A DNA stretch of 64,000 nucleotides from the NCBI GenBank assembly GCA_018175275.1, contig GCA_018175275.1_4531.1. The stretch is one strand, 5' to 3'. The notes under the pieces were generated by a model that saw only the letters and a list, made by a program, of their open reading frames with translations, was not told where the DNA came from and searched no databases. How positions within the stretch are numbered: position 1 is the first letter of the stretch; every line of letters begins with the position of its first letter. Position numbers and translations under genes: made by a program. Positions 41,955 to 58,380 of this stretch are shown here, in pieces. This stretch comes from a phage.

Positions 41955-42367
41955 CTTTCCTCCAGAAGTTGTTCAACAGTTTGACGAGTATGATTGTCCC
42001 AGTAAACCTTAGTGAAGTCAAGAGTTCCTTGTTCGTTTCTCTTAGTTTCGAAGAAGTATCCGCCTTCTCTTTCTACTCTGTCTCTAATGTGCTCTATGAG
42101 GTGCTTTTTACAAGATGCTGATAAACAATAGTCATACTCCCCACGAAGCAATGCTATAGCTGCAAGTCTGTTATCACCAACTTGAGATATTGTCCAAGAA
42201 AGCATACTACCTTTTATACCTAAAGGTGTTTGTCGAATGGAATATCCACCATGCCGACTGATAGAAATTATGGCAAGTGGTTCTCCTGTTAGAGATCTTC
42301 CTAATGCACCTTCTGTTGGACTTCCTTCGATAATACGTTTGAAAAAGGCTTTGATCTTACCTAACAT
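41948..42367 (-). CDS. hypothetical protein
   Basis: 139-aa ORF; GGGGGA upstream. Confidence 0.55.
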   Translation of the reverse strand: MLGKIKAFFKRIIEGSPTEGALGRSLTGEPLAIISISRHGGYSIRQTPLGIKGSMLSWTISQVGDNRLAAIALLRGEYDYCLSASCKKHLIEHIRDRVEREGGYFFETKRNEQGTLDFTKVYWDNHTRQTVEQLLEERC

Positions 42368-42384
42368 AAGTCCCCCTTAAAAAT

Positions 42385-42519
42385 TTACTTGTTTAAAGTA
42401 TCTCTTACTTGTTCTGCTTGACGTTTAGTAATAAAAGTCCCAACCGAAACGTTAAACTCATTGACTACAGAGAACGATCCATCACGGTTCTCACGAATAT
42501 TAAACAATTTCTTACTCAT
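42385..42519 (-). CDS. small protein (about 44 aa)
   Basis: Not in track; GGAGGTAGAA upstream; ATGAGTAA-type overlap with upstream stop. Confidence 0.35.
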   Translation of the reverse strand: MSKKLFNIRENRDGSFSVVNEFNVSVGTFITKRQAEQVRDTLNK

Positions 42520-42715
42520 TTCTACCTCCTTCAATGCTTTGTGCCGTACCATCCCAAGCCATTAGAATGTTTTCCAATAGTTCACGAGGATCTTTAAACC
42601 AAACTTCCATTTCATCAAGGATCTCGTCCGTGTCGTAAGTATAACCTGGAACACCAAGTTCACATTTCTTAAGATAGCTTTCTAACCAGCGGTGATAATT
42701 CTTAACCCCATTCAT
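42512..42715 (-). CDS. hypothetical protein
   Basis: 67-aa ORF. Confidence 0.5.
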   Translation of the reverse strand: MNGVKNYHRWLESYLKKCELGVPGYTYDTDEILDEMEVWFKDPRELLENILMAWDGTAQSIEGGRNE

Positions 42716-43040
42716 ACTGTGCTACCTTTTCTTTTACCCAATCTACACGATCTTTATCATAATGTTGAGTGCCAAGGAAAAGACCATTGTGGAAACTTTC
42801 CTCACCGAAAGGATAAATTGGATCTAAACCATCTTCTTCAAATAACATTTTTAATCTGTTTGATGTAGATTTCTTAGTTTCTGAATTGTAGTTTGTGGTT
42901 ATAAGCCAATCTTCCAAACAACGACACAAACCTTGACGAGAATCCCAAGGAAAAACACAATCTCCGACAGGAGCTTGTTCCGCCCATTTCAACCAGCCTT
43001 TAAAAAAGTTATACAGTATGTAGTCTTCAGTGTAATACAT
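42702..43040 (-). CDS. paralog family A protein (GLC...PF...RVxWV motif)
   Basis: Internal ATG of track ORF 42702..43088 with AAGGAGGAG upstream; shares WL..W, GLCRCL, PFG, RVDWVKE with five other ORFs. Confidence 0.55.
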   Translation of the reverse strand: MYYTEDYILYNFFKGWLKWAEQAPVGDCVFPWDSRQGLCRCLEDWLITTNYNSETKKSTSNRLKMLFEEDGLDPIYPFGEESFHNGLFLGTQHYDKDRVDWVKEKVAQYEWG

Positions 43041-43091
43041 TATCTCCTCCTTTACGTATACAATAACACCCCGAAGAACGGGGTGCAACTG

Positions 43092-43703
43092 TTATTTAAT
43101 CTGTTTGAAAATTTCGTTTGGAACGGTACCGTTTAAAATACCTTCTACGATCTCTTGTGCAGATGTGTAAGAGAGTCCAAAAGAAGCTACGCCTAAAATT
43201 GCCTCCTTCAAAGGATCTGGCAGGGGTTCAAAATTACCTGCAACAAAGCCACCTGCACAAGCAGCGCCTTCATCATCCCAGAAAACAACTGCTACATCGT
43301 TACCATGCGAAGTTGTGCGATGTGCAATAACTTCAACTTCGGTGCCTTCTTTAGGAACAGAATAAGAACTGTCCCAAGAATATCTTTCTAAATCAGGAAC
43401 AAAGATAACCTTTTCACCTACTGGCGGCAGTTCACAACGATAATACCAAGAATTTTTTTCGTTCATTGCTCTATTTTCCTCCACGTCTTCAAAAGTAACG
43501 ATCCAATCGTAGCCGTAAGAAAACGGATATTTTAGATCTAAAGAATAAGTTTGACCTAGATCGTCCTCAACAAGAACCATCTTGTCAAAGTTTGCGATGT
43601 TAGGATTATGTTTAATGACAGGGTATGTTTCCCCTACAGTAAATTGTCCTAAATGGTAAAGTTCATCTCTCCAAGTAATTTGGATATGAGTGCATTGAAT
43701 CAT
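43092..43703 (-). CDS. hypothetical protein
   Basis: 203-aa ORF; GGGGGTGA upstream. Confidence 0.6.
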   Translation of the reverse strand: MIQCTHIQITWRDELYHLGQFTVGETYPVIKHNPNIANFDKMVLVEDDLGQTYSLDLKYPFSYGYDWIVTFEDVEENRAMNEKNSWYYRCELPPVGEKVIFVPDLERYSWDSSYSVPKEGTEVEVIAHRTTSHGNDVAVVFWDDEGAACAGGFVAGNFEPLPDPLKEAILGVASFGLSYTSAQEIVEGILNGTVPNEIFKQIK

Positions 43704-43707
43704 AAAA

Positions 43708-43980
43708 TCACCCCCAAGAAATATTTATATATCTTACAATGTTTGCACTGTCTAAAGCCATGTTTGCACCACACCCACGCTCGCGCCAGTAACTAACAAT
43801 ACCTTCACAGATACTCTCTTGTATCTTCTTATCACTTGGCATTTCTAGTATAAGACTTGGGTTGTGGATGTTTATGTTATAATACCCTTCCTCTGCTGCT
43901 TGAGCTACCAATTTACTTACTTTTTCAAAGTACGGGGAATTAGTGGCATCTGCCATTGTTTTTAAGGTTTGTCTATCCAT
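43708..43980 (-). CDS. hypothetical protein
   Basis: 90-aa ORF; TAATG overlap. Confidence 0.5.
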   Translation of the reverse strand: MDRQTLKTMADATNSPYFEKVSKLVAQAAEEGYYNINIHNPSLILEMPSDKKIQESICEGIVSYWRERGCGANMALDSANIVRYINISWG

Positions 43981-44345
43981 TATTCTGCCTCATCATAGAA
44001 GAAATCCAACTCTTGTTCCAGTTGTTTAACTTGATCCTTAACCCACTGTACACGTTTTTCATTAAACATGCAACGTTTTTCCTTACACTCTTGCTCAAAA
44101 GATTTTGCTGTGTTAAACGGGAAAGTTGTATCTAAACCAGCATTTTCAAAACTGGCTAATTGCATACCATAAACAGAATATGCTAAAGAATGATCGGCTC
44201 GAAATTCATCACTTATATACATACGTAGACCTCGGCATAAGCCAACATCAGCGTAACCACTTTCTCGTGGAAAGAGACGGAGGTGTTCTAACCAATTATT
44301 ATAGAAATCTAAAAGAATCCTCTTACACTTCAAATCAATTGTCAT
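43980..44345 (-). CDS. paralog family A protein
   Basis: Internal ATG of track ORF 43980..44378 with AGGAG upstream; GLCRGL, PFN, RVQWVKDQV. Confidence 0.55.
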   Translation of the reverse strand: MTIDLKCKRILLDFYNNWLEHLRLFPRESGYADVGLCRGLRMYISDEFRADHSLAYSVYGMQLASFENAGLDTTFPFNTAKSFEQECKEKRCMFNEKRVQWVKDQVKQLEQELDFFYDEAE

Positions 44346-44745
44346 AAAAAGTTTCTCCTTCATCGAACAAGTTGGCAAGATTGTTCACCGCAATTTGGGT
44401 GGAAAGAAGACAACTGTTTGCAGACACATAAGCACGAGCTATTTTGTAAACATAGGCTTTCGTATTACAATTATCTAGGATCGGAAGACTTTCGTCGATA
44501 GCATCTATAACACTAAACATCACATCTAAAACTTTAATGGTGAGTGTTGTATTTGTATCTTCGTAACCTTTTTCAATCCGACCTGAATAGAAAGCATAGT
44601 CCTCAACAGTTCGTCGTTTAAACTGGCGCATAAAATCGGAACCATCTGTAGCAGAATTGAACAAATTTTCAAAAAATACGTCCCATCCGGCAAAAAGGGC
44701 TGACAGCATGATTAAGTGATCTATAGATTCATTTTCTTGTTTCAT
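44335..44745 (-). CDS. hypothetical protein
   Basis: 136-aa ORF; AGGAGAGG upstream. Confidence 0.6.
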   Translation of the reverse strand: MKQENESIDHLIMLSALFAGWDVFFENLFNSATDGSDFMRQFKRRTVEDYAFYSGRIEKGYEDTNTTLTIKVLDVMFSVIDAIDESLPILDNCNTKAYVYKIARAYVSANSCLLSTQIAVNNLANLFDEGETFYDN

Positions 44746-44753
44746 ATCCTCTC

Positions 44754-45425
44754 CTATTTAATGTTCAGTCTGGCACACAAACGAGAAACAGTTTTAGCAT
44801 CCCATTTACCACCACGTGCTGTTGCTATTTTCTTACTATTGAATTTTTCAGCAATAGTTTTGTAAGGTGTATTTAAATCTCTAAGGATCTCCAAGCGTTC
44901 ACGGAATGTCTCTGCAAAAGCGTCTGCTTTAACAGAGTTGTATTCCATTTTTCCTTTTCTACGTGCAGCGGCAGTTTTAGGATTAGCACTGCCTAATAAA
45001 ACACCTTTGCTTTTTGCTACAGCAAGCCCCTTTTTAATACGATCAGCAATACCTCTAACTTCTTGTTCAGCCAGAACAGACAGAAGCTGTATAACCATTT
45101 TATCTGCGTCTGGCATGATGGCTATCTTAACATCAATCATTTCTAGAAGAGTTGCTACGGAGGCGTTGTTACGACCCAAGCGGTCAACTTTAGCTACCAA
45201 TAAAGTTGCTCCGGTAGCTTTACACATTTCAACCGCTTTAACCAGTTCCTTACGTTGCTTCCAATCGCCCTTACCCGAATAGTATTCAGAAAATTGACCA
45301 ATAACTTCCGCATCAGGCACAGAGTCTAAGAAGTAACGGATATCATTCTCTTGGCTCTCCATACCATATTGTGCCTCACCTTTTTTCTGTTTAGAAAGAC
45401 GACTGTAAACAACAAACTTTTTCAT
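44754..45425 (-). CDS. serine recombinase (resolvase/invertase family)
   Basis: VYSRLSKQKKGEAQ (catalytic Ser region), VDRLGRN, LAEQEVRGIADRIKKG; C-terminal HTH-like tail; AGGAG upstream. Confidence 0.75.
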   Translation of the reverse strand: MKKFVVYSRLSKQKKGEAQYGMESQENDIRYFLDSVPDAEVIGQFSEYYSGKGDWKQRKELVKAVEMCKATGATLLVAKVDRLGRNNASVATLLEMIDVKIAIMPDADKMVIQLLSVLAEQEVRGIADRIKKGLAVAKSKGVLLGSANPKTAAARRKGKMEYNSVKADAFAETFRERLEILRDLNTPYKTIAEKFNSKKIATARGGKWDAKTVSRLCARLNIK

Positions 45426-45454
45426 AACCACTCCTAAACCATTGCTGTATTCTC

Positions 45455-45484
45455 ACTTTACAAAACGAATAAACACTTGTCAAG
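45455..45484 (-). promoter_or_regulatory. sigma70-type promoter for recombinase gene
   Basis: Minus strand TTGACA-18 bp-TAAAGT, no downstream stem-loop. Confidence 0.45.
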
Positions 45485-45495
45485 GTATTTATTAT

Positions 45496-45708
45496 TTACA
45501 GCCATTCTACTCTTAAGCAGTATTCCTCGACATGTTGTTTACGCTTGTTTTTGTCTATGTAAGTGTATTCAACAAATGTCCCAAGATAGTCCTTGTCTAC
45601 ATTGTGTGGGCTATTGATTGGACATTTAGTACGACAAACCCGTTGCCACTGACGAAGAATTACGGCTTTGTTTTTAGGATCAAAGGGATGAGGGTAATGT
45701 ACCTTCAT
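45496..45708 (-). CDS. hypothetical protein
   Basis: 70-aa ORF; AGGAGGCG upstream. Confidence 0.55.
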   Translation of the reverse strand: MKVHYPHPFDPKNKAVILRQWQRVCRTKCPINSPHNVDKDYLGTFVEYTYIDKNKRKQHVEEYCLRVEWL

Positions 45709-46032
45709 TCACGCCTCCTGTTTTAGTCGAAAAATATTTTGAATAACTAGAGATGTATAGTTATCACTTAGTCCCATAAGTTCTACTTCCAAGTTTCGAA
45801 TATCTTCCACCGTAGGAGGATATGTTGGTAAAAATGCTTGAGCATTGCCAGATCCAACCTCATTGCTGTAAGCAGTTGTAAAATTGTAAGATACAAAACA
45901 TGAAACACCTTTTTGTCGGTACCCGATTAATCGACGAATACACCAGATAAGAGCCAAACCTATGAGAACACCTCCTAAACCAGCTAACAAGAAGGATAAG
46001 TTCATAATAGCTTCGTTAACAACTGCTTGCAT
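45709..46032 (-). CDS. membrane protein
   Basis: 107 aa with TM-like LSFLLAGLGGVLIGLALIWCI; AAGGAGAAA upstream. Confidence 0.6.
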   Translation of the reverse strand: MQAVVNEAIMNLSFLLAGLGGVLIGLALIWCIRRLIGYRQKGVSCFVSYNFTTAYSNEVGSGNAQAFLPTYPPTVEDIRNLEVELMGLSDNYTSLVIQNIFRLKQEA

Positions 46033-46042
46033 TCTTTTCTCC

Positions 46043-46342
46043 TTAGTTGTGTAAACCCAAATGTGCTACAACTTCTCTACGATAAGATAACTGCATAGCG
46101 ATTTTATAGCCAGGATGAAAACCATTTACATCAATGTCATCAAACCAAACCTCAAATGAACCGTGTTTAAGAGTCATTAAGTTAATATACCATTCAATAG
46201 TATAATGATCGTTAGCAATACCTTCGATGTAAAATTCTCGACAACAGTGAGATAAATCTTCACTTGTTTCACGTTTCCAGTCTTTGATAGCACCCTTCTC
46301 TTTGGCTTTATTCAGAATGTGGATCAGGTCTTCAACTTGCAT
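46043..46342 (-). CDS. hypothetical protein
   Basis: Internal ATG of track ORF 46043..46390 with AAGGAGAG upstream. Confidence 0.55.
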   Translation of the reverse strand: MQVEDLIHILNKAKEKGAIKDWKRETSEDLSHCCREFYIEGIANDHYTIEWYINLMTLKHGSFEVWFDDIDVNGFHPGYKIAMQLSYRREVVAHLGLHN

Positions 46343-46352
46343 ATTCTCTCCT

Positions 46353-46907
46353 TTAGTTCCAACTAATAATAATGTGTTTGATAATCCCAAAAATACTGTG
46401 CTCTGCGGTTGCCAATGTTACATCCAAACCTTTTGCACGTAGCATTGTAGCTACAACATTTGCCCCTCTTTTCTGTTCACTTATCTGTTCATAAGAAGAA
46501 GGGTTATTGCACAAACCAAAACTGGAAGGTTCAAAGTATTTTTCAAACTTCCCTTGTTCCGCACAATCTTCAATCTCTAATAGAACGGCGTCTACCATTT
46601 CAGTAAAATGGGAATTTGCTTGCAGTGCTTTATTACGCAGTTTATCACGTAAACTTCCCGTAGATTCTTCCTGCTCTTCTGTCTGTCCATCTTCACAGAA
46701 AGGATGAAGTTCAGCCCAGTCCCAAGCATCTCCTTCTAAAGCAAATGGAGTGTTGTAATTGAAGAAAGTGCAGCGCGGATATTCCCCGTTGAAAGAATCT
46801 TTCAGCAGAATATATTTCTTACCGTTTGCATGGAAGAGTTCTCCTTTGATAACCTTACCTACAAGGATATCACTGTTAGTGGAACGGGTGCAAATAAATT
46901 TTTTCAT
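46353..46907 (-). CDS. hypothetical protein
   Basis: 184-aa ORF; AGAGGAGAAA upstream. Confidence 0.6.
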   Translation of the reverse strand: MKKFICTRSTNSDILVGKVIKGELFHANGKKYILLKDSFNGEYPRCTFFNYNTPFALEGDAWDWAELHPFCEDGQTEEQEESTGSLRDKLRNKALQANSHFTEMVDAVLLEIEDCAEQGKFEKYFEPSSFGLCNNPSSYEQISEQKRGANVVATMLRAKGLDVTLATAEHSIFGIIKHIIISWN

Positions 46908-46969
46908 GATTTTCTCCTCTTTGTTTCGATGAGATGATTATGACAAAGACAGATCCTTCTGTCAACTAT

Positions 46970-47191
46970 TTATTTCCATTCCCCTTGGTGTTCTTTGATC
47001 TCATAAGAGTAGTATTCGAACATGCTCATACAAACCACACCAGACATTTCTAAACAAAGAGGTTTACTATTATAAAAGGCACTTATCATTCTTCCAGCTT
47101 TATCTGCTGACTCTTTAGTATCACATCCACAAACTGTTCTCACCCAAGGATCAGGGCCATCATATTTAAGACGCACAATCCACATGATCAT
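46970..47191 (-). CDS. hypothetical protein
   Basis: 73-aa ORF; ATGA overlap. Confidence 0.5.
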   Translation of the reverse strand: MIMWIVRLKYDGPDPWVRTVCGCDTKESADKAGRMISAFYNSKPLCLEMSGVVCMSMFEYYSYEIKEHQGEWK

Positions 47192-47415
47192 TCTTCCATC
47201 TCAAACCATTCAGGGAACACTTTGCGGAAGACCCGCGTGTTTTCTAAGAGAAATTCCAACTCTTTTTCCAAATCTGCGTTCCAACCGTTTATTTTAACAC
47301 GGATTGCCAATGCACTTGCACGGCGACTCAATTCTTGACAGATTGGATCACGCAGAACTATTGAGTCATAAAACTGACAAACAGCCTCAAGTTCATACCA
47401 GTTATAATCCGACAT
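47188..47415 (-). CDS. hypothetical protein
   Basis: 75-aa ORF; AGGAGGATG upstream. Confidence 0.55.
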   Translation of the reverse strand: MSDYNWYELEAVCQFYDSIVLRDPICQELSRRASALAIRVKINGWNADLEKELEFLLENTRVFRKVFPEWFEMEE

Positions 47416-47741
47416 TATTCATCCTCCTCTGCAATACGATCTCTTACCCAATTAATCCTGTCCACGTTCAGGTGACATACCTCTGCATCTGATTCTAAGA
47501 CATATGCATCGTAGTTCTCATTGAAAGGGAGTGCTTGACTCAACCCTTTGTGGTAAAACTGTGCGTGCATTTCATCTGACAAGGTTGTTATAAGGGGATT
47601 GTAATTACCTCTGTGCACATAATCGAACAAGTTGGCACACAAACCACAATCCCGCCGAAAAGGTTTACCATCAGGAGCACCAACATCAATCCATGCTAGA
47701 TAAATTTTATAAAACTCCATCAACCTTGTGCTTGTTTTCAT
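47415..47741 (-). CDS. paralog family A protein
   Basis: YLAWI, GLCANL, PFN, RINWVRDRI; GAGGTGG upstream. Confidence 0.6.
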   Translation of the reverse strand: MKTSTRLMEFYKIYLAWIDVGAPDGKPFRRDCGLCANLFDYVHRGNYNPLITTLSDEMHAQFYHKGLSQALPFNENYDAYVLESDAEVCHLNVDRINWVRDRIAEEDE

Positions 47742-47979
47742 TTAGCCACCTCGTTAGTTTTTCTTGCTCTTTGTTTGCGCGTTCTAAGCTTCTGAACTTT
47801 AAACAGAGGGAACGAGAATCCCTACCCATGCACAAGCTTTCATCTAAGCTGTGCTCCCCAACCAACCAAAGAGAGTATGTTTGAACATCTAACCCATAGT
47901 TTCTGTCTTTCCATAATCTCACCCCAAGAACATCAAAAGGAGCTTCCGCGACTAAAGAAAGAAACCGATCTTTATTCAT
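47707..47979 (-). CDS. hypothetical protein
   Basis: 90-aa ORF; AAGGTGGTG upstream. Confidence 0.5.
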   Translation of the reverse strand: MNKDRFLSLVAEAPFDVLGVRLWKDRNYGLDVQTYSLWLVGEHSLDESLCMGRDSRSLCLKFRSLERANKEQEKLTRWLNENKHKVDGVL

Positions 47980-48041
47980 ATTACACCACCTTGCTCACGT
48001 TGATAATGTATGTATACCATACATAAAATAAATGTCAAGGC

Positions 48042-48242
48042 TTATCGACACAGATAGTTGTAACGATCTGCTTTATCCTCGGCTTCAGCAAAGTCAGCAA
48101 TCAAGGAAGTTTTGAGTTCTTCCAACTCTTTCACCCAAGAGTCGTAATCGTTCTGTGTTTCTCCAATAGTTTGGAGAAAACAATCGTCGTAGCCAATAGA
48201 CATGGCTAACTCGATAATACGTTCCAGTTTTTCTTCCATCAC
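48042..48242 (-). CDS. hypothetical acidic protein
   Basis: 66-aa ORF; start overlaps upstream stop. Confidence 0.5.
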   Translation of the reverse strand: MMEEKLERIIELAMSIGYDDCFLQTIGETQNDYDSWVKELEELKTSLIADFAEAEDKADRYNYLCR

Positions 48243-48601
48243 TTCTCTCCTTCTACAGACTTCTGTTTAACATAAAAGTAAGCACCACGAGCAAGATACA
48301 AATCATGTTCAATATCGCTCACAGGAAAACCATCTGGATTTTTAAAACCGTCTTCTACAGCCAAAATGAGAGATCGTAAACTGATAGCTAACAACTCCAT
48401 TTGATCTTGTAGTTTTCTATTTTCTGCATAAAGGTTTTTGCATTTTTGTTCTGCATTTTTCCATTGTTCTAATGCATGATCATAGTTTCGCATAAGGATA
48501 GCTTTTTCTTGTTCACGTTTAAAAGTTTCTTCACAAATGAAACCCGTGCCTAAACCAGTTTCTTCATCTTTGACAAACACTTCAACAAAATCTTTAGACA
48601 T
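48239..48601 (-). CDS. hypothetical coiled-coil protein
   Basis: Internal ATG of track ORF 48239..48733 with TAGGAGAT upstream. Confidence 0.5.
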   Translation of the reverse strand: MSKDFVEVFVKDEETGLGTGFICEETFKREQEKAILMRNYDHALEQWKNAEQKCKNLYAENRKLQDQMELLAISLRSLILAVEDGFKNPDGFPVSDIEHDLYLARGAYFYVKQKSVEGEK

Positions 48602-48602
48602 A

Positions 48603-48866
48603 TTATCTCCTATTTGCTTTTGGATACTCCCAACCCTCTGGGAGATCTTCTTTACACATCCACTCAAAAGGCCAGCGACAATAACTGTGCCACTTTCCAT
48701 CGAGATACAAGCAATCTTCATCCACTGGTCCACAAGGGTTGATAACTACAACACACCCTTTTGCTCGCCAATATTGAACTATTTCAGGGTAAAAACAAGA
48801 AACGTCGGTCCACTCCCAAATACGTTCATCATTCAAACGGTATGCTGCTGGCAATGTCTCTTTCAT
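48603..48866 (-). CDS. hypothetical Cys/Trp-rich protein
   Basis: 87-aa ORF; AGAGGT upstream. Confidence 0.5.
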   Translation of the reverse strand: MKETLPAAYRLNDERIWEWTDVSCFYPEIVQYWRAKGCVVVINPCGPVDEDCLYLDGKWHSYCRWPFEWMCKEDLPEGWEYPKANRR

Positions 48867-48870
48867 ATTA

Positions 48871-49317
48871 TTAAACCTCTGTCAAAGAGAAACGCCAATC
48901 CTTACTACTACCTACACCAAGGAAGATATAGTCTCCGGTACTAACGGAATATCTCCAAGCGGGAATCCAATCAGGAATCTCTGGCTTATGGCTGTAGCCA
49001 TAACGCTCGCCACTCGAATCTGTTGCAATATAATTAACAAATTCAGGAACCTCTAAAGTTTCACCTTGATACTCTACACGCTTGAAGCCATCTTCCACTT
49101 CTTTCTCACCTTCTACCAGAAGGGCAAGAAGTTTGATGTGAGGGCAAGTGAAATCTTGTCCTGGATAACGTGAACGGATATCTGTTAACAATGCGACTAC
49201 AGCATCCGATAACTCTTTATAATCCTCATATCTTACAAATGTGCCTTCTGTCGGATCATCAGGACACAAACGCCAAACATCGTTGCAGTTTACAGCGTAA
49301 TGTCTCATTTTAGTCAT
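48871..49317 (-). CDS. hypothetical protein
   Basis: 148-aa ORF; GGGGGA upstream. Confidence 0.6.
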   Translation of the reverse strand: MTKMRHYAVNCNDVWRLCPDDPTEGTFVRYEDYKELSDAVVALLTDIRSRYPGQDFTCPHIKLLALLVEGEKEVEDGFKRVEYQGETLEVPEFVNYIATDSSGERYGYSHKPEIPDWIPAWRYSVSTGDYIFLGVGSSKDWRFSLTEV

Positions 49318-49326
49318 AAATCCCCC

Positions 49327-49725
49327 TTATCGTTGCGTACAATCAGCTTCTAGAGTAAGAACATTCGTTATTGTTTTATCATTTTTTAGAAATGCAAACC
49401 AAGCCAAAGTGTCTCGATACTCTGTGCGCATCATTACTACTTCAGTAGTGCCAATAAATTGTTGTGAACCGTACATAGCACTACCATCTTTACTTTTTTC
49501 TCCTGTGTATTGCAGAATGCCACTCATCAAAGCACCACCTGAATTTTTAAGGATAAAGGAGTTATCTTTATTAATGACAACAGAAGCCATTTTCTTAGGA
49601 CCAGAAATCACTTCACCTTTCAGATTTTTAACAACCACATCTGACACACACTCATAAACTTGAGACGCATTTGCTGTTCCAAGTGATGCAACGAGTAGCA
49701 ATAAACCTACAATGATCTTTTTCAT
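49327..49725 (-). CDS. secreted/periplasmic protein
   Basis: Signal-peptide-like MKKIIVGLLLLVASLGTANA; AGAGGAGAG upstream. Confidence 0.6.
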   Translation of the reverse strand: MKKIIVGLLLLVASLGTANASQVYECVSDVVVKNLKGEVISGPKKMASVVINKDNSFILKNSGGALMSGILQYTGEKSKDGSAMYGSQQFIGTTEVVMMRTEYRDTLAWFAFLKNDKTITNVLTLEADCTQR

Positions 49726-49739
49726 ATAAACTCTCCTCT

Positions 49740-49820
49740 TTATTTACCCGACGCGCCCCTGTTGGGCAGAAAGGGTTGTACGCAAAATTTTTAGCTCCAA
49801 TCGTCGGGTGTCCCGACTCC
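49740..49820 (-). other. structured intergenic element (nested inverted repeats)
   Basis: CCCGACG...CGTCGGG long-range pair enclosing GCCCC-TGTT-GGGC and GTCGGG-TGT-CCCGAC hairpins. Confidence 0.3.
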
Positions 49821-50027
49821 TTACGCTTTTAATGTTTTAATAGAATGACAAGCTTTGCAAACCATAACCGGAACAAGTTCGTCTCCACTATCCGCATAAA
49901 TCACTGTTTTCTTCATCCTGCCACCACATGAACAATACTCCGTATGATCTGCTGGAATATTAAATATTCCGTAATCACTTTCATACTGTTTCTTACATAT
50001 GGACACTGCTTTTGTAAAACAAGACAT
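49821..50027 (-). CDS. small zinc-finger protein
   Basis: CSCGG...CKACH; 68 aa. Confidence 0.5.
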   Translation of the reverse strand: MSCFTKAVSICKKQYESDYGIFNIPADHTEYCSCGGRMKKTVIYADSGDELVPVMVCKACHSIKTLKA

Positions 50028-50029
50028 AC

Positions 50030-50251
50030 CTACTCCGAAAGAACATTCACTTCATCAGAGAAAAATACGTAATCACAACCTTCCCAAACATCTTCTTCAA
50101 ACCACTCCCATCCCTCAACTTTGGACATTTCTTCTATCGTAACAAAGAATGTTGTCATGTCATCGCTAACAAGATGTGCTTCAACAACAAAAGGAATCTG
50201 AACATTCTCAAAACCAACATAACCCAATACATCACAAACTCTAATTTTCAT
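50030..50251 (-). CDS. hypothetical protein (paralog of 53581..53802)
   Basis: Shares W-x-W...EG-DYVFF segment with 53581..53811; AGGAG upstream. Confidence 0.55.
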   Translation of the reverse strand: MKIRVCDVLGYVGFENVQIPFVVEAHLVSDDMTTFFVTIEEMSKVEGWEWFEEDVWEGCDYVFFSDEVNVLSE

Positions 50252-50252
50252 A

Positions 50253-50441
50253 TTATGCTCCTTTGTAGATTATGTTGGTGCGTTCACACTCTGCCACCAG
50301 CAAGCGATTAGCGATGTTGTCCATAGGAACATCAATCTCTACGCTCCAGGCATTGATATACACTTCTTCAATCTTTGCTCCAAGCGTTTGTGCGATCAGG
50401 GCAACAGCCCCAGCATATTCAAGTTTAATCTCTATTACCAT
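50253..50441 (-). CDS. hypothetical protein
   Basis: Internal ATG of track ORF 50253..50453 with GGTG upstream. Confidence 0.45.
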   Translation of the reverse strand: MVIEIKLEYAGAVALIAQTLGAKIEEVYINAWSVEIDVPMDNIANRLLVAECERTNIIYKGA

Positions 50442-50455
50442 TTTGCACCTCAAGG

Positions 50456-50656
50456 TTATTTATCTTGCTTGTATCTTACAAGGCGATCACACTCCAGGTC
50501 AAGAAATTTCTCCGCATTTCGTTCATGTTTGAGCACAATACATTGTTCTTTCCAGTCTGTAGCTCTTTGCTGCGCTGCTCCTGGGTCAAAATCCCAAAGC
50601 CATGCCGCGAAAAGAACAACCATAACAATTACCAAGAAACTAAACACTATTGGCAT
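50456..50656 (-). CDS. small membrane protein
   Basis: Internal ATG of track ORF 50456..50692 with AGGAGGATG upstream; TM segment IVFSFLVIVMVVLFAAWLW. Confidence 0.5.
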   Translation of the reverse strand: MPIVFSFLVIVMVVLFAAWLWDFDPGAAQQRATDWKEQCIVLKHERNAEKFLDLECDRLVRYKQDK

Positions 50657-50961
50657 TGCACATCCTCCTGTGTAGCATGATCTTTTACCCATTTTATACG
50701 GGCAGCATTCAAATGTAGCAGCCCGTTTCTTTGTGCAAAATCATATTTAAACCAATCCCCATCATCAAACGGGTATTCTTCAGACAAACCTGCTTCGCGG
50801 AATTGCATTTGCATTTCATAATTTAGGTCATCATAACCACCAGACCAAAGATAGAGGCAACTACATAATCCTTTATCATGCCAGAAAGGATTATTATCTG
50901 GAGCACCAGCTAACAGCCAGTTATGATATGCCTGATAAAATTCTTTAAGTTCCTCTGACAT
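50647..50961 (-). CDS. paralog family A protein
   Basis: YHNWLLAG, GLCSCL, PFD, RIKWVKD; AGGAGGT upstream. Confidence 0.6.
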   Translation of the reverse strand: MSEELKEFYQAYHNWLLAGAPDNNPFWHDKGLCSCLYLWSGGYDDLNYEMQMQFREAGLSEEYPFDDGDWFKYDFAQRNGLLHLNAARIKWVKDHATQEDVQCQ

Positions 50962-50962
50962 T

Positions 50963-51139
50963 TAACCTCCTGTATACAGTGTTGAAAGATACGCAGCAAA
51001 AGCATTCTCGGCTGTTTTCACCTCCTCTTCAAGATCTTCACGCTCTGCTGGCGTTAATGCATTCCGCACAGCAGCGTCTGCTTCTCGGATTTTTCTTACT
51101 AAACGTGAAACATCTTTCAGTTGTTGAAAAGTAGCCATA
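50963..51139 (-). CDS. small protein (about 58 aa)
   Basis: Not in track; AGGAG 7 nt upstream of ATG. Confidence 0.35.
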
Positions 51140-51174
51140 ATCTTTCTCCTAGAATCTTTGTGATTTCACTTTTT

Positions 51175-51393
51175 TCAATTAGTCTGATTTTCATATCGTA
51201 CTTCCTTCAATGCGAGTAATGCATTCACCAGATTATCAACACCTTGATCATCCAGTGCAATAACATCAAAGTTAAACCCTGTATCAGTTGGGACTTTACG
51301 TTTTATGGTGTAATAGTCTCCTTCATGACGTTCAACATACGCGTATGGGTAACTGCTGTTTGGATCATGTTTCACGCGAATAGATGTTTTCAT
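51175..51393 (-). CDS. hypothetical protein
   Basis: 72-aa ORF; AGAGGAGAA upstream. Confidence 0.55.
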   Translation of the reverse strand: MKTSIRVKHDPNSSYPYAYVERHEGDYYTIKRKVPTDTGFNFDVIALDDQGVDNLVNALLALKEVRYENQTN

Positions 51394-51408
51394 GTTTTGT
51401 TCTCCTCT

Positions 51409-51645
51409 TTAGTCAAACCAGTCGTATTCAGAAGGGTAACGAGCGTAGTTTGGCTTGTACCCCAGCCTTTCCATCTTAACAGACATACGAGTGAAGCCAA
51501 AGGTTGTTTTGCCCTTAGACATAAACTTCTTCCCACTCTTCATTGGCTTCTTAGGGTCTTTGATCGTCTGGTGTAACGCTCGCGCAAGCCACAAAGTGTA
51601 TGCGCTCGGCACTTGATTAACTTTCATCTTGTTACCTTTCATCAT
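51409..51645 (-). CDS. hypothetical basic protein
   Basis: Internal ATG of track ORF 51409..51660 with GAGGTGA upstream; Lys-rich. Confidence 0.5.
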   Translation of the reverse strand: MMKGNKMKVNQVPSAYTLWLARALHQTIKDPKKPMKSGKKFMSKGKTTFGFTRMSVKMERLGYKPNYARYPSEYDWFD

Positions 51646-51941
51646 TTCACCTCGGACCAATCAATAGTGATCCACTCGTATGCCCCGTTCAGATCCATTT
51701 CTTTATAAACAATAAGCCCACGCTCACGAAGAATTGCTACTGCTTCATCCATCCACTTCACCTGATTGTAGATCGCCCCTGGGTGGGTAGGGGAATTATC
51801 CAGACCAAAATCAGATGGTGTGAAATTTCTTGAAGAATTCCCCGCTCGTGCTTCAGCAAAACATGTCTCGATCACTTCTTCAACAGGGAAGTTGAAGGAA
51901 GCTTCTTTTGCAATACGGCGTAACTGTTCGGTCAGATTCAT
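51642..51941 (-). CDS. hypothetical protein
   Basis: 99-aa ORF; AAGGAGAA upstream. Confidence 0.55.
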   Translation of the reverse strand: MNLTEQLRRIAKEASFNFPVEEVIETCFAEARAGNSSRNFTPSDFGLDNSPTHPGAIYNQVKWMDEAVAILRERGLIVYKEMDLNGAYEWITIDWSEVK

Positions 51942-51968
51942 CTTATTCTCCTTTCGTTGTGCGAAACA

Positions 51969-52406
51969 TTATAACAGATCTAATGCTTTCAATTCTTCTT
52001 TCAATGATTCAGGCAGGTCACATTCAATGTCAATCAGAGATAACAAGTGACCAACAATGCCTTCCAGATGTTGATACTCACTATAACTTATAAATTCAGA
52101 ATTGTAAACAGAAACATCCTTAGTTTCTTTCACAACTTCCCCCGCAGACACGCACATAAAAAAGTTACGCTCTCCGCGAGCTAACAATATCTCCCAACTC
52201 CTGAACGGATACTGTCCAGCTTCAATAATATCCCCGCTGTCCAATAAAGTCAATGAGCAAACAGACCCTGATTCACTAACATCTTCGACGCGGAAACAAG
52301 ACCCTTCAATCAAAGCTGCCATTTTGAAATTTTCATCAGAGATCATAGAGAAAGCTTCACGGGCAGCTTTAGTTTTGAAACAGTAAACAGCATTAACTTT
52401 AAACAT
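51969..52406 (-). CDS. hypothetical protein
   Basis: Internal ATG of track ORF 51969..52472 with GGGGGA upstream. Confidence 0.5.
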   Translation of the reverse strand: MFKVNAVYCFKTKAAREAFSMISDENFKMAALIEGSCFRVEDVSESGSVCSLTLLDSGDIIEAGQYPFRSWEILLARGERNFFMCVSAGEVVKETKDVSVYNSEFISYSEYQHLEGIVGHLLSLIDIECDLPESLKEELKALDLL

Positions 52407-52419
52407 AACATTCCCCCTT

Positions 52420-52878
52420 TTAAACAAAAGATACGCCGATGGTAGCAACAACCAAACGTTTATAAACTTCAACCTCTTCTGTAGGATTAGCCATTTTATG
52501 CTCTGCTGCTTCTTTCAAAGCTTCTTCATAACTTTCAAATCCAGAAATACAGGTGTCATCAGTCATTACAACATACCACTCTTCTTTTGTTGTATCAACA
52601 GGTTCTTCTTGGGGTTTTCCACGACCACCACGAACACCACCGTCAACAAAATAATCTATATGAGCAGAATTGATTATGTAACGATCCCCATCACCAGCAG
52701 TGATAATACCATCTCTCATACCTATTACAACCATTGACAAGATATTACCATTTGCATCAGTGCTCAACACCTCGAAAAAATTCTCTCCAATGATAGCCGC
52801 AATACTGTTATCAAAGGTAGAATATAGTCGCATATAATCCTCATCCTGGAAACGGTAGACATGACCTTCTTTAAACAT
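52420..52878 (-). CDS. hypothetical protein
   Basis: 152-aa ORF; AGGAGGAGAG upstream. Confidence 0.55.
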   Translation of the reverse strand: MFKEGHVYRFQDEDYMRLYSTFDNSIAAIIGENFFEVLSTDANGNILSMVVIGMRDGIITAGDGDRYIINSAHIDYFVDGGVRGGRGKPQEEPVDTTKEEWYVVMTDDTCISGFESYEEALKEAAEHKMANPTEEVEVYKRLVVATIGVSFV

Positions 52879-53332
52879 TGCTCTCTCCTCCTAGTTCATC
52901 ATACCATTTCAAAGCGTCTTTTGGAAGCATACCAAAATCTTCTTTCAGTTCTTTTTCAATCTCTTCTTGCATTTCCATCAGCATTTTCAGTTGGCGTATT
53001 TTCTTCCGTAACAAAGCTTCCCGTTCACTGTTGCTTGGTGTTACTTCGTTTGCTGTTACCATTACATATCCTGTCGGAGAGCAAGGAAGATAATCATCAA
53101 TATTTTCTAAAGCATAACGATAATTGGAGTCCAGGAAGTTTACATGCACTCGATCACATCCAAACAACGTGGCACGAAATACTTCATAACGAGTTTCAGA
53201 TAAGATATGTTGCACACAGACAATGCCTACATCATTTTGCACTGCACAGGTTACATTTAATAAACTTGAGTGTTCTTTGACATAATCTACAACACATTGC
53301 ACATGCGCTTCCAGTATAGATGGTTGTCTCAT
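52871..53332 (-). CDS. hypothetical protein
   Basis: 153-aa ORF; GGGGAGGT upstream. Confidence 0.55.
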   Translation of the reverse strand: MRQPSILEAHVQCVVDYVKEHSSLLNVTCAVQNDVGIVCVQHILSETRYEVFRATLFGCDRVHVNFLDSNYRYALENIDDYLPCSPTGYVMVTANEVTPSNSEREALLRKKIRQLKMLMEMQEEIEKELKEDFGMLPKDALKWYDELGGESNV

Positions 53333-53577
53333 TTTCTACCTCCCCATAATGCTAACATTTTATTGAAAATGGAAACGCGTCGTGCGCGAGATGCCATATC
53401 ATAATTCATTCTTTCCGTCTCTGCAAGAAATTGATCTACTGTAATCAACGCTTTTGTCTTCTCTTTCAGAGTTTGCATATTCATCCATTCACATTCAGAG
53501 TACCAATTATCGAAATACAAACTATCAAGAAGATCCATTGCTGCTTCATTTTGTTGTGGTGTGATCATTGCATACAA
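53329..53577 (-). CDS. hypothetical protein
   Basis: 82-aa ORF; start region with two ATGs. Confidence 0.5.
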   Translation of the reverse strand: MYAMITPQQNEAAMDLLDSLYFDNWYSECEWMNMQTLKEKTKALITVDQFLAETERMNYDMASRARRVSIFNKMLALWGGRK

Positions 53578-53580
53578 CCT

Positions 53581-53802
53581 TTAATAAACAATTGCATATT
53601 CGTGAGGAAAGAAAACATAATCTTCCCCTTCTCGTGCATCTATCTCGTCCCAAAACCATTCCTGCACTTCCATCATCTTCGAGAATCGCACATGAGCAAG
53701 CCCACTGTATTCCACCGTAGCTTCCAACACAAGTGGGAATTTTGCACGGGTAAGTCCTTTATAACCACCATCATTCTCAATACGAATTTTCATGCGTTTC
53801 AT
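53581..53802 (-). CDS. hypothetical protein (paralog of 50030..50251)
   Basis: Internal ATG of track ORF 53581..53811; shares EG-DYVFF segment. Confidence 0.5.
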   Translation of the reverse strand: MKRMKIRIENDGGYKGLTRAKFPLVLEATVEYSGLAHVRFSKMMEVQEWFWDEIDAREGEDYVFFPHEYAIVY

Positions 53803-53803
53803 G

Positions 53804-54013
53804 TTATGCATCCTTCAGACCCTTAATAAAGTAACGACCAACCGGATTCCCTCGGAAGTATTCGTTAATGAAATCGATAACACACGTTTCACTGCCTGTC
53901 ACAACGGACGGCTTAAAGTTTTGGAATTCTACAGCTACACGGCTGGCTTTAGCCAGTGCTTGCACACGTGTAGGATCAGTCAAGAACATTGTGACAGTTT
54001 TCAAATTCTTCAT
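53804..54013 (-). CDS. hypothetical protein
   Basis: 69-aa ORF; GAGGAGATG upstream. Confidence 0.55.
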   Translation of the reverse strand: MKNLKTVTMFLTDPTRVQALAKASRVAVEFQNFKPSVVTGSETCVIDFINEYFRGNPVGRYFIKGLKDA

Positions 54014-54062
54014 TTCATCTCCTCATTGGCTATCTGTTATGTCATCCATTATACAAACATCT

Positions 54063-54431
54063 TTATTCAATGCAAGCATTATTTGCATCTTCAATGCGAT
54101 CTTTCACCCATTGAAGACGTAACGTGTTGGTATGACACGCCAAGTTTATACACTCTGAAAGGTAATCCATGCAATCTGCATTGAACGGAAGATTGTAGTC
54201 CAGCCCTGCACATGTAAATTGTTTCCTCATTTCATATTTCAAACGGTCTAACAAATGATCACGCCATCTTCTATCTTCTTCTCTAGTTGCCTCACCAACA
54301 AAATCATCTACATAATCTACCAGACAACCACATAAGCCACTCGTTGTGCGATTCATTGCAGGATAGTTGGCAATCCATGCTTTGTAGAAGCGAAGCAATG
54401 TTGCACTACTCAACGGAATATTATTTGTCAT
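54063..54431 (-). CDS. paralog family A protein
   Basis: Internal ATG of track ORF 54063..54446 with AAGGAGAG upstream; FYKAWIA, GLCGCL, PFN, RLQWVKDRI. Confidence 0.55.
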   Translation of the reverse strand: MTNNIPLSSATLLRFYKAWIANYPAMNRTTSGLCGCLVDYVDDFVGEATREEDRRWRDHLLDRLKYEMRKQFTCAGLDYNLPFNADCMDYLSECINLACHTNTLRLQWVKDRIEDANNACIE

Positions 54432-54765
54432 TTTTCTCTCCTTCATAATCCTGAATTCTATCTAGCACCCATTGTATACGATGTTTGTTTTTATGGCAAA
54501 TATGTTTTTTATGTTCGAAGGTGTATTCCTCATAACCACCTTCATTAAACGGGAAATTGTAATCTAGTCCTGCACCAATAAACTGGGATTTCATCTCTTG
54601 TTGTAGACGAGGTAACAGTTCATCAGGGTATGTTCCCTCTACATACTTAATCAAACATATGCACAAGCCACTCGTTGTGTGACCTTCTACCTCACCAGCA
54701 AGCCAAGCTTTGTAAAACTTCATTAGACGTAAACTACTTAACGGAACATTTTTACTCTCTTGCAT
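54421..54765 (-). CDS. paralog family A protein
   Basis: FYKAWLAG, GLCICL, PFN, RIQWVLDRI; AGAGGAGAT upstream. Confidence 0.6.
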   Translation of the reverse strand: MQESKNVPLSSLRLMKFYKAWLAGEVEGHTTSGLCICLIKYVEGTYPDELLPRLQQEMKSQFIGAGLDYNFPFNEGGYEEYTFEHKKHICHKNKHRIQWVLDRIQDYEGEKNDK

Positions 54766-56360
54766 GACAATCTCCTCTCATCGTTAGCCATCTTTCATGG
54801 CAATCATCAATCACCAACATCATACGATCAATCTTAAGGAATTACAATCGAATTACCATAGGGGATTCCTATCAATTATCCCATATATACCGATTATTTT
54901 TGACACCCCACTCTTGTATAAAAAGTAACCCAAAATATCTACGGGGAGAGATTATTTCGGGACACCTTGTTTCATGGCAATCATGGCAAGAATATCTAAT
55001 AGAATCAATATCCTATGGCAAAAATCATGGCGCATACGTAAGAAGTGCTTAACGCGAATTTTCGGGCCGTCAGGTCCACGCAGCGACAATTCCCAAATAT
55101 CATGCGAATGAGAATAATTATCATTCGTATTCAATGACTTATGCAAGGCTCATGCCAACATAGCGACAAGGTGGGCCACCTGATTATAAATCACACAAAT
55201 ACTTATTTATCAATGGTTTGGCAACTTCATCATATGACGGAACACTGTCAACTAATCCCGCTCATGACAAGCAGACTATTATTTATATGAGAATGATTAT
55301 TATTTAAACGTTTATTAACATAAAAACTAAAATAAATCAAGAATTTTCTGATTTTATTTACGTTTAAGAGAACTTGCTCAACATTCCCGCCTGTGGCGGT
55401 AACATTTCGCCCCCAAAATTATTGACTTTTATTCTATTATGTGCATAGTGTGCAATGTATCGGAATGATGATAATCATCCTCCCATTGCCCCCATAATTA
55501 TTGCCTTGCTAATCTTTTCATTGCTAATCATTACAATGATTATTGTTATTGCGCTAATGTTATGATCTTGGTAATTACATATAATGCTAATAATAAGCCA
55601 GCGCAATAAGTGTAAGCGTCATTACGCTTGCAATTATTGCAAGCTACGCAGTAACAAGAAATAACCGTCACCGATGGTTATGATTGTTGGGGTGTAGTTG
55701 GCTTATTATTAGCTCGCTATGTGTCCGGCATAGCGTGCTAATGATGACTCTGTGAATGATTCGTTTTGTAATGATTTCATTCATGCACTATTTTGCTAAT
55801 AGTTATTATTTTAATGGTTTCGTTTGTTATTGTTCGTTAGTTGGTTGTTTTGTCGTGTTATCGTTATTTTGCTTAGTATTCATCATGGTTTGATTGTTTG
55901 TCGTTATCAATCATCTTGCTATTATTCCTTTGATTATGATTAGTTTGCTTATTGTTTTATGTTGTTTGTTGGTTAGTTGTTGCGAACTATTATCAACATT
56001 ATAATTATGCGCTTATATTGCATAGATAATCATGGGTAGATGATAATGGTTATCATTGCACTAGAAAGGAGGTAAAAGGGTGTTTTTGATGGTTTGTTGT
56101 TGGTTGTTGATCGATTTTAACCGCTCTAAATGGCTCTCTAACAGCCTGTAACCCTGGGAGGTATGGTTATTCGTTTGCTGGTTGATTAGCTCGATACCGC
56201 GATTTATTCAGTTTTGTTCTGTGTCGGTTTTTCATAGGCGGAACCTATTGAGAAGATGATAAATAAACTTGTTTGTTATTGTCTGATTAATAGGGTTAGT
56301 CTATCAACATTGTTCGGGCAAAAAGAAAGGGCGCTTGGTGCGCCCTTGTTTTGTTGTCAA
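54766..56360. other. ORF-free island with iterons, palindromes and strand-compositional skew
   Basis: No ORF >=60 aa with SD on either strand over about 1.6 kb; six (T/C)GCTAAT copies at 55505-55805; C-poor G+T-rich plus strand 55800-56000. Confidence 0.5.
56318..56348 (-). terminator. rho-independent terminator
   Basis: Minus strand AAGGGCGCA-CCAA-GCGCCCTT followed by UCUUUUU. Confidence 0.55.
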
Positions 56361-57229: not shown

Positions 57230-57244
57230 TTTATTTTCCTCATT

Positions 57245-57305
57245 ATCGGCGGCACCATTGCCGCCCTACGTGGTAAATATTAGCACACTGGCGATCTGTG
57301 TCAAT
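57245..57305 (-). promoter_or_regulatory. PeSL-like cassette (early promoter + 5' stem-loop)
   Basis: Minus strand TTGACA, TAnnnT-type -10, GTAGGGCGGCAATGGTGCCGCC hairpin. Confidence 0.55.
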
Positions 57306-57310
57306 ACTTT

Positions 57311-57697
57311 TTATTCAATATAAATCAAATTATCTTCACCAATGTAAGCCGACACGTTCGGCATAAACTTAGCTGCATTTGTTAGGCGGTTCGCCGTGTT
57401 AGTGGTGTATATTTCAGGGCGATCCCAAAATCCTACGCCGTGACCGTTACGGGTAAAATGTAAATCATTCCCGATCTGGTTGGCTGTTGCGCCGTCGCTC
57501 ATTGCCTCAGAGATAGCGGCAAGATTAGCATTAATAAAGGCTGTTACATCCTGGGCGATCCGTTCGTCCGCGCTAGGAGAAAAATCATAATCGTCTAAGT
57601 TATCAATAAAATTACCTTCATGATCCCTGGCTGATTCAGCAAAAATAAAGGCTTCTTTATAGCCGTTGATGATTTCAATAATGATTTCTGTTTTCAT
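57311..57697 (-). CDS. hypothetical protein
   Basis: 128-aa ORF; start overlaps upstream stop. Confidence 0.55.
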   Translation of the reverse strand: MKTEIIIEIINGYKEAFIFAESARDHEGNFIDNLDDYDFSPSADERIAQDVTAFINANLAAISEAMSDGATANQIGNDLHFTRNGHGVGFWDRPEIYTTNTANRLTNAAKFMPNVSAYIGEDNLIYIE

Positions 57698-57909
57698 GCT
57701 GTACGCTCGACAATAATAATGGTTTGCGGTATCTCGTTTTCTACTACTAATAAGGCTTTTTTCTGCGTGATAGATATTTTAACACGTTGTAAAGTAGCGG
57801 TAAAATCTTTCATTTCATTATGCGCGGATTTAGTGCAATGCCAGATCTCAGGCTTACCTATTTGCAAGCCGCGTAAAAATTCTGTTTTACCTGTCTTATT
57901 CGTGATCAT
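57694..57909 (-). CDS. hypothetical protein
   Basis: Internal ATG of track ORF 57694..57918 with AGGTGA upstream. Confidence 0.5.
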   Translation of the reverse strand: MITNKTGKTEFLRGLQIGKPEIWHCTKSAHNEMKDFTATLQRVKISITQKKALLVVENEIPQTIIIVERTA

Positions 57910-57919
57910 TTGATTCACC

Positions 57920-58024
57920 TTAACCGATACCGTGGGAAGATAGGATCATATTAGCCATAGTTGCAACCACTCCAACCGATAACGCCAGGCCCACTATTAC
58001 AACCGTGAAAATTTTCTCTAACAT
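57920..58024 (-). CDS. small hydrophobic peptide (about 34 aa)
   Basis: Not in track; directly downstream of PeSL; MLEKIFTVVIVGLALSVGVVA. Confidence 0.3.
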   Translation of the reverse strand: MLEKIFTVVIVGLALSVGVVATMANMILSSHGIG

Positions 58025-58039
58025 GATTCTACCCTCATT

Positions 58040-58105
58040 AATGGGCGTTGCCTTATTGCCCCGCCCTATGTCGTACACTTTACCAGATAACCGCGTATTG
58101 TCAAA
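58040..58105 (-). promoter_or_regulatory. PeSL-like cassette (degenerate stem)
   Basis: Minus strand TTGACA-16-TAAAGT then GGGCGGGGCAATAAGGCAACGCCC. Confidence 0.5.
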
Positions 58106-58300: not shown

Positions 58301-58319
58301 GATGATTTCTCTTTTAGTT

Positions 58320-58380
58320 GTGAGCGGCACTATTGCCGCCCTACGAAATACATTCTATCAAGTAATAAACTATTGTCAAG
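58320..58380 (-). promoter_or_regulatory. PeSL-like cassette
   Basis: Minus strand TTGACA-16-TAGAAT-7 nt-GTAGGGCGGCAATAGTGCCGCTCAC. Confidence 0.6.

Follow-up and report, generated by a model that had tools for sequence, protein, structure and literature searches.

The genes described here lie in a 64,000-nucleotide (nt) stretch of phage DNA (GenBank assembly GCA_018175275.1, contig GCA_018175275.1_4531.1), referred to below as the window. Six open reading frames (ORFs), designated A1 to A6, all lie on the minus strand between positions 42702 and 54765, within a block of tightly packed small genes. An earlier reading of the letters by themselves (the sequence-only reading) had taken these ORFs for dispersed paralogs of one small-protein family in a phage genome, produced by a sixfold expansion under diversifying selection. 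The region from 42000 to 55000 was 95 to 99% identical to 65 GenBank phage records of Phapecoctavirus, in agreement with the proposed phage context; by this identity, the window is a segment of the genome of a Phapecoctavirus (a phAPEC8-like myovirus of Escherichia coli, subfamily Stephanstirmvirinae).

Alignment of the six products gave 15 invariant columns (L, F, G-L-C..L, F..G-L..P-F, and R..W-V), with identities to the first copy of 22 to 29%. Pairwise BLASTP, with all 675 six-frame ORFs of the window as the database, was significant in 14 of the 15 comparisons (E values of 3e-31 to 5e-5). The profile hidden Markov model (HMM) of PHROG 2510 matched all six copies over approximately 100 residues each. 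A family HMM retrieved exactly the six copies from the window, with nothing else below an E value of 0.3, and in the scanned 150 kb of the related phage nepoznato it found no copy outside the corresponding block. Because all six ORFs are under purifying selection (see below), they are judged to be coding. At the level of sequence, these comparisons confirm the six minus-strand ORFs as true homologues. That the shared motifs arose by compositional chance, or that the ORFs are noncoding and form no real family, is exceedingly improbable. Apart from the low pairwise identity, nothing favors that explanation, and it is contradicted by the pairwise E values (down to 3e-31), by the external PHROG 2510 profile that matches every copy, by 1,613 related clusters, by confident predicted folds, and by ratios of nonsynonymous to synonymous substitution (omega) well below 1 in six of six copies.

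The start of each copy was taken as the one annotated in related GenBank records. All six ORFs proposed in the sequence-only reading were present on the minus strand, with the likely starts of three corrected to ATG codons at 43040, 44345, and 54431. The alignment, the BLASTP comparisons, and the PHROG 2510 matches also upheld its proposal of a single family with ordered conserved motifs and divergent sequence between them. The motifs themselves needed amendment: the order was borne out by the 15 invariant columns, but GLCxCL occurs in only four of the six copies (the ORF at 47415 has GLCANL and that at 43980 has GLCRGL), and the ORF at 42702 ends in W-V-K-E. None of the copies came near a threshold in Pfam, NCBIfam, or PADLOC (which covers defense proteins, not anti-defense proteins), as would be expected of a family that does not belong to a well-known domain.

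The copies are small proteins (about 105 to 120 amino acids [aa]), mostly acidic (isoelectric points [pI] of 4.5 to 6.2 for A1 to A6; family median, 5.3), and show no signs of membrane insertion. A1 (42702 to 43040, minus strand; PHROG 2510 E value of 7e-27) encodes 112 aa from the ATG at 43040. It is the most divergent copy; GLC, PF, and R..WV are present, and Glu57 and Gln61 (residue numbers here and below are those of A3) are absent. A terminator-like GC hairpin followed by a T run (43086 to 43066, minus strand) lies between the upstream gene, whose stop is at 43092, and the A1 start, and the annotation of phage Schickermooser has a terminator at the corresponding position. Since this hairpin falls inside the ORF that begins at TTG, the alternative 128-aa TTG start is disfavored. 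A2 (43980 to 44345, minus strand; E value of 4e-26), with 121 aa from the ATG at 44345, likewise lacks the Glu57/Gln61 pair and has Met in place of His90. A3 (47415 to 47741, minus strand; 108 aa; E value of 5e-32) is nearest the family consensus, and some relatives carry a sister copy of it (the phAPEC8_0044 type, 53% identical). A4 (50647 to 50961, minus strand; 104 aa; E value of 9e-29) is 47% identical to gp18 of the T1-like phage Sf12 and no more than 40% identical to any co-resident copy. The last two copies form a tandem in which the ORFs overlap by 11 nt: A6 (54421 to 54765, minus strand; 114 aa; E value of 6e-26) is the upstream member, and A5 (54063 to 54431, minus strand; 122 aa from the ATG at 54431; E value of 3e-25) is the downstream member. 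Relative to A6, A5 carries a 12-residue insertion between helices 2 and 3.

Structure prediction and residue conservation were used to characterize the family domain. AlphaFold2 modeled A3 with a predicted local distance difference test score (pLDDT) of 94.3 and a predicted template modeling score (pTM) of 0.87 and modeled A1 with a pLDDT of 93.9; the same five helices are predicted in the same order in both. A profile search of PDB returned a single weak, partial match (E value of 0.49) to an uncharacterized protein, and the family is predicted to form a five-helix domain without a solved structural relative. Conservation was counted over 213 domains, taken from clusters that share less than 50% identity. 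Pro72 and Phe73 were each kept in 212/213 domains, Arg95 in 211/212, Cys35 in 208/210, Asn or Asp at position 92 in 210/213, and Phe10 in 206/213; Gln61 (178/213), Glu57 (177/213), and His90 (154/213) were kept less often. Many family members are tandem fusions of two domains and some are fusions of three, and the Cys..PF..N..R set was present in nearly every domain of these fusions. In the models, helix 2 has Cys35 in its first turn and helix 5 has Arg95 in its first turn, just past Asn92, and we infer that Cys35, Asn92, and Arg95 may line a single pocket. Membership in the papain-like cysteine peptidases was considered for the conserved Cys, His, Asn, and Gln residues and was rejected: peptidases of that kind adopt an alpha+beta fold in which a beta-barrel lobe carries His and Asn, and their Cys-His dyad is invariant.

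The relationships among the copies do not fit the sixfold expansion that had been proposed. Representatives from elsewhere outscored every co-resident copy for A1 (at least 39 such representatives), A2 (at least 36), and A4 (at least 23). By score, the only pairs that look like duplicates within a lineage were A5 and A6 (46% identical) and A3 and its phAPEC8_0044-type sister (53%). On these scores, at least five deep lineages are found side by side in Phapecoctavirus, and they are not the product of a recent sixfold expansion. Across ten Phapecoctavirus genomes, the family has 5, 6, or 7 copies. A1 and A2 had orthologues in 9/9 relatives, and the dispersed copies are core genes (9/9 genomes).

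Selection was estimated as gene-wide omega, pooled by the Nei-Gojobori method over the ten Phapecoctavirus genomes. Omega was 0.10 for A1, 0.05 for A2, 0.29 for A3, 0.02 for A4, 0.26 for A5, and 0.07 for A6. This range was indistinguishable from that of 33 neighboring genes (0.01 to 0.33). At greater divergence, the A5 clade had an omega of 0.30 to 0.47, compared with 0.07 to 0.23 in two adjacent genes, a value that is raised and still below 1. Gene-wide positive selection (omega above 1) was found neither in the six copies nor in this fastest clade, and the diversifying selection for which the sequence-only reading had suggested a dN/dS check was thus not supported. Because each lineage is individually held by purifying selection, the copies do not appear to be redundant.

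Variation of another kind was found at the tandem locus (54063 to 54765), which holds one, two, or three family copies among relatives. A6 is a separate gene in 7/9 relatives, and in the other two A6 and A5 are fused into one chimera. In the A6-A5 fusion (P0003) the sequence switches at a PLSS motif common to both copies, and in a second chimera (P0007) the switch lies just past an AGLDYN motif that both copies also share. A related contig (L018) has three copies in tandem. The DNA of a 147-kb ENA contig (L020) matches the window at 98.3% identity as far down as position 54733 and at 90% identity at and below 53811. Between these flanks, a hypervariable cassette (54017 to 54733 in this comparison) gave only two short matches, of 76 to 78%. 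The two tandem family proteins of the contig are 48% and 51% identical to A5, and the synonymous divergence (dS) at the cassette was 1.65, compared with 0.02 to 0.13 in two neighboring genes. Most of the segments flanking the cassette are 90 to 98% identical. Such steep local divergence between mostly conserved flanks points to allelic replacement of the cassette, with boundaries that fall within the conserved N- and C-terminal segments of the genes themselves. The A5 clade is also the most diverse in public data, accounting for approximately 17 of the 32 clusters recovered at 90% identity. The tandem locus therefore looks like an arms-race locus that varies via recombination and not via point substitution. 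The proposal of diversification can be retained for this locus in that altered form and was not sustained for the four dispersed copies. That the proteins inhibit host factors or defense systems, as the sequence-only reading suggested, is plausible.

The family extends well beyond Phapecoctavirus. An exhaustive profile search gave 1,613 clusters (50% identity) at an E value of 1e-3 or less and 627 at 1e-10 or less. The other domains fused to family members comprised one DUF551 fusion and unannotated extensions and gave no functional lead. By tblastn, the family was found in 260 phage records, with phages of E. coli, Klebsiella, Rhizobium, Achromobacter, Salmonella, Erwinia, Ralstonia, and Delftia among them; among the tblastn matches listed, the annotation was hypothetical throughout, except for "gp3" in one N4-like record. 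Protein searches gave 32 matches with the six-copy alignment, all "hypothetical," and 15 with a 130-sequence alignment, which added nothing. When 130 diverse members were searched against Pfam, no Pfam family was matched by more than one member. An association with plasmid leading regions, which would have suggested an anti-restriction role, was not seen: 1 of 72,556 plasmids had a family match, and that plasmid is phage-like, carrying phage-type genes that include phd/doc. A scan of bacterial genomes with the protein of this phage-plasmid gave matches only to its unrelated C-terminal extension, on two short contigs of metagenome-assembled genomes. The family, as seen so far, is confined to phages and phage-like elements. 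Annotators of nepoznato had noted pVOG VOG7392 on nepoznato_101, 104, 113, 125, and 135, which are positional orthologues of the copies, and we take the VOG7392 assignment from that annotation; the nepoznato orthologue of A3 is 100% identical to it.

One member belongs to a model phage. The 130-sequence family HMM gave coliphage N4 gp3 (YP_950481.1, 104 aa) a score of 73.2 bits, and an HMM derived solely from the six window copies gave it 59.9 bits; the remaining N4 early proteins scored no more than 3.3 bits. The gp3 gene lies at 1.2 to 1.5 kb of the N4 genome, among those for gp1, gp2, gp15, and gp16, which are early gene products (PMC4496689). The family also includes Sf12 gp18 and gp5 of JG068, a T7-like phage of Burkholderia. 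At the left end of the JG068 genome, the gp5 gene is flanked by annotated host promoters on one side and a terminator on the other, and its similarity to phAPEC8_0044 was already remarked in the JG068 genome paper, with no function given (PMC3765740). Literature searches found nothing relevant for PHROG 2510, VOG7392, phAPEC8_0044, YP_950481, or the function of N4 gp3, and the CRISPRi-ART paper makes no mention of "phage N4," Schitoviridae, rV5, or gp3.

The promoter context of the block was also analyzed. With respect to transcription, the stretch from 57 to 64 kb is upstream of the block, and its intergenic positions hold at least nine copies of an approximately 75-nt unit (57230 to 63607, minus strand). 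Each unit reads, on the minus strand, TTGACA, 16 to 17 nt, a TAnnnT hexamer, and a conserved GC hairpin (GCGGCAATGGTGCCGC). The same 57- to 64-kb region has 15 minus-strand promoter-like sites of the TTGACA-N16/17 type, and promoter-like sites there numbered 45, compared with 26.8 ± 5.6 expected. The units are probably an array of early promoters for the host RNA polymerase, each followed by a conserved 5' stem-loop. Taken together with N4 gp3 and JG068 gp5, whose genes occupy early positions, the array suggests that the copies may be expressed early.

Several features of the surrounding genome were recorded along the way. Near position 38000, the GC skew changes sign and gene orientation switches from the plus strand (1 to 38 kb) to the minus strand (38 to 64 kb); this is the convergence point of two transcription arms. 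A serine recombinase/DNA-invertase gene in the middle of the block (44754 to 45425, minus strand) is the most conserved gene of the block (omega of 0.01), and its listing as a "methionine ABC transporter ATP-binding protein" in several GenBank records is a misannotation. Among the GenBank records matched by the 42000 to 55000 region, near-identical Phapecoctavirus genomes are recorded as "Campylobacter phage" (five records), "Acinetobacter phage vB_AbaM_ABPW7," and a "Pseudomonas" phage, and these labels are probably wrong or the records contaminated.

Two other sets of paralogs are found in the block, both on the minus strand. Interspersed among the six copies are members of a second family, which is smaller (46353 to 46907, 51642 to 51941, and possibly 43708 to 43980); they have a common C-terminal segment that ends in I-x-I-S/D-W; the first two members match each other by BLASTP at an E value of 1e-6, and the third aligns weakly (21 to 27% identity). 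A third paralogous set is a pair of approximately 75-aa proteins (50030 to 50251 and 53581 to 53811; 36% identity, E value of 3e-10), both of whose nepoznato orthologues are tagged pVOG VOG6032. Two adjacent minus-strand genes (51969 to 52472 and 52420 to 52878) are annotated as "goF mRNA metabolism modulator" in some related records. The number of goF-type genes at this position differs among relatives: some have extra genes of 786 and 456 nt, and one contig (L019) has three weakly similar copies. The adjoining gene (52871 to 53332, minus strand) has been replaced locally; its product is 55.6% identical to the version in the 147-kb contig, the flanking genes are 91 to 99% identical, and the gene was present at 90% coverage or more in only 5/9 related genomes.

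What the family might do was considered in light of these results. Our favored interpretation, which we hold tentatively and at slightly less than an even chance, is that the copies are nonredundant, host-directed accessory factors, made early, with a single functional site common to all of them and variable surfaces that set them apart. Each copy would act in the infected cell in host takeover or counter-defense. The common site would be made up of Cys35, the loop with Pro72 and Phe73, Asn/Asp92, and the Arg95 that begins helix 5, and the variable surfaces, and hence the targets, would differ from copy to copy; the copies probably have different roles. New variants would arise chiefly by recombination between copies and not by faster point substitution, through gene fusion or deletion, through chimeras with junctions in or near PLSS and AGLDYN, and through allelic cassette exchange at the tandem locus. 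A number of observations weigh against this interpretation. No experiment or annotated relative ties any member to a host target or defense system, and nothing about the four dispersed copies points to an arms race. For Phapecoctavirus, gene position is the sole basis for the proposed expression timing; promoter-like sites inside the block were not enriched (53 found, 46.7 expected), and a terminator-like hairpin (56347 to 56327) lies between the promoter array and the block. A single shared chemistry is uncertain because Glu57, Gln61, and His90 are not all kept in A1 and A2. Finally, a polar set kept in both halves of tandem fusions suits an enzyme or small-molecule binder at least as well as it suits an inhibitor of protein-protein type.

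The main competing proposal is that the proteins are small thiol-dependent enzymes or modules that bind a small molecule or nucleotide, for example, a hydrolase or sponge for a signaling or defense-related metabolite. Cys35 would be the nucleophile or a ligand, Arg95 and Asn92 would hold an anionic group, and the paralogs would differ in substrate and not in the protein they target. The near invariance of Cys35, Arg95, and Asn/Asp92 over the 213 domains exceeds what a purely structural role would lead one to expect, and fusions of two or three domains maintain the set in almost all of their domains. Cys35 and Arg95 each occupy the first turn of a helix, a position typical of reactive cysteines and anion-binding sites, and the spread of the family over phages of alpha-, beta-, and gammaproteobacteria would favor a universal ligand over a lineage-specific host protein. 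We nevertheless regard this proposal as unlikely, given that the searches revealed no similarity to any enzyme family or fold, that the candidate catalytic partners (His90, Glu57, and Gln61, with the counts given above) are not universal and are missing in A1 and A2, and that an all-helical domain of approximately 100 aa is an unusual enzyme scaffold. Alternatively, the proteins could serve the phage's own program as adaptors or regulators of transcription or replication, with each paralog tuned to a different phage partner. N4 gp3 is encoded in the early region beside gp1 and gp2, the cofactors of N4 RNAPII, and the dispersed copies behave like housekeeping genes, being core (9/9 genomes) and under strong purifying selection. 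Such a role is hard to reconcile with a single mobile gene found in unrelated phages (T7-like, N4-like, T1-like, and rV5-like phages and a phage-like plasmid) that differ in their transcription and replication systems. Comparison of the window with loci from JG068, Sf12, and an N4-like phage revealed no conserved partner gene, the only neighbors in common being one HNH-like match (Sf12) and one borderline match (E value of 4e-4), and a copy number of 5 to 7 with wholesale swapping at the tandem locus would be unusual for essential machinery. We consider a role in the phage's own program quite improbable, and direct nucleic acid binding is unlikely because the proteins are acidic.

A bolder interpretation combines several of these elements. 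It holds that the family represents an unrecognized five-helix fold with a reactive Cys/Arg site, which virulent phages of proteobacteria, N4 included, would direct against the physiology or immunity of the host in the form of a modular enzyme or ligand-binding effector. In that case, Phapecoctavirus would carry a panel of at least five specificities together with a recombination-driven allele-swapping locus that tracks host variation. We regard this as possible but doubtful.

The family is one of the larger phage families without annotation: it has 1,613 clusters, no Pfam entry, no solved relative, and a member in the model phage N4. In a tractable system, a single series of experiments would thus yield annotation for hundreds of the genomes on which phage therapy work draws; both phAPEC8-like and rV5-like phages are often candidates for therapy. 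The strict Cys/Arg/Asn signature offers a mutational handle, and the hypervariable tandem locus is a natural experiment, since alleles in mostly conserved backbones can be compared for host range and sensitivity to defense systems. If the copies are ordinary accessory factors without a phenotype, the value would be limited to better annotation.

Part of this family was known before, as an unknown-function group in PHROG 2510 and VOG7392 and as genes found in over 100 records of GenBank. What appears to be undescribed is the homology to N4 gp3, the fold without a solved relative, the invariant Cys/Arg set, the side-by-side presence of deep lineages, and the locus that swaps cassettes; these features make the family a reasonable experimental target. 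PHROG 2510 and pVOG VOG7392 are clustering labels of unknown function, and their entries are without the lineage co-residence, the Cys/Arg set, the fold, or the hypervariable tandem locus. N4 gp3 resembles the window copies in its length (104 aa), in its G-L-C, P-F-N, C-H-x-N, and R-I-x-W motifs, and in its early-gene region. N4 differs in that it is a podovirus with a single copy and with early genes transcribed by the virion RNA polymerase, whereas the window comes from a myovirus with six copies and sigma-70-type promoters. Because the literature searched gives no function for N4 gp3, this homology supplies a name and not a mechanism.

Small early phage inhibitors of host factors or defenses, such as T7 Ocr, T4 AsiA, and the anti-CRISPRs, are acidic, helical proteins of approximately 100 aa. 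Their genes occur in early or accessory regions and in many cases in variable loci, and homologues of known function frequently cannot be detected. The likeness of the window copies to these inhibitors is by analogy only. The tandem locus can be compared with the hypervariable accessory loci of virulent phages, in which alternative counter-defense genes are exchanged between near-identical backbones. As in those loci, the 54017 to 54733 segment is swapped, here for alleles that are approximately 50% identical, and copy number varies from one to three. Unlike those loci, in which the alternatives are unrelated genes, every alternative allele at 54017 to 54733 is itself a family member, and the exchange resembles a shuffling of alleles inside a single family.

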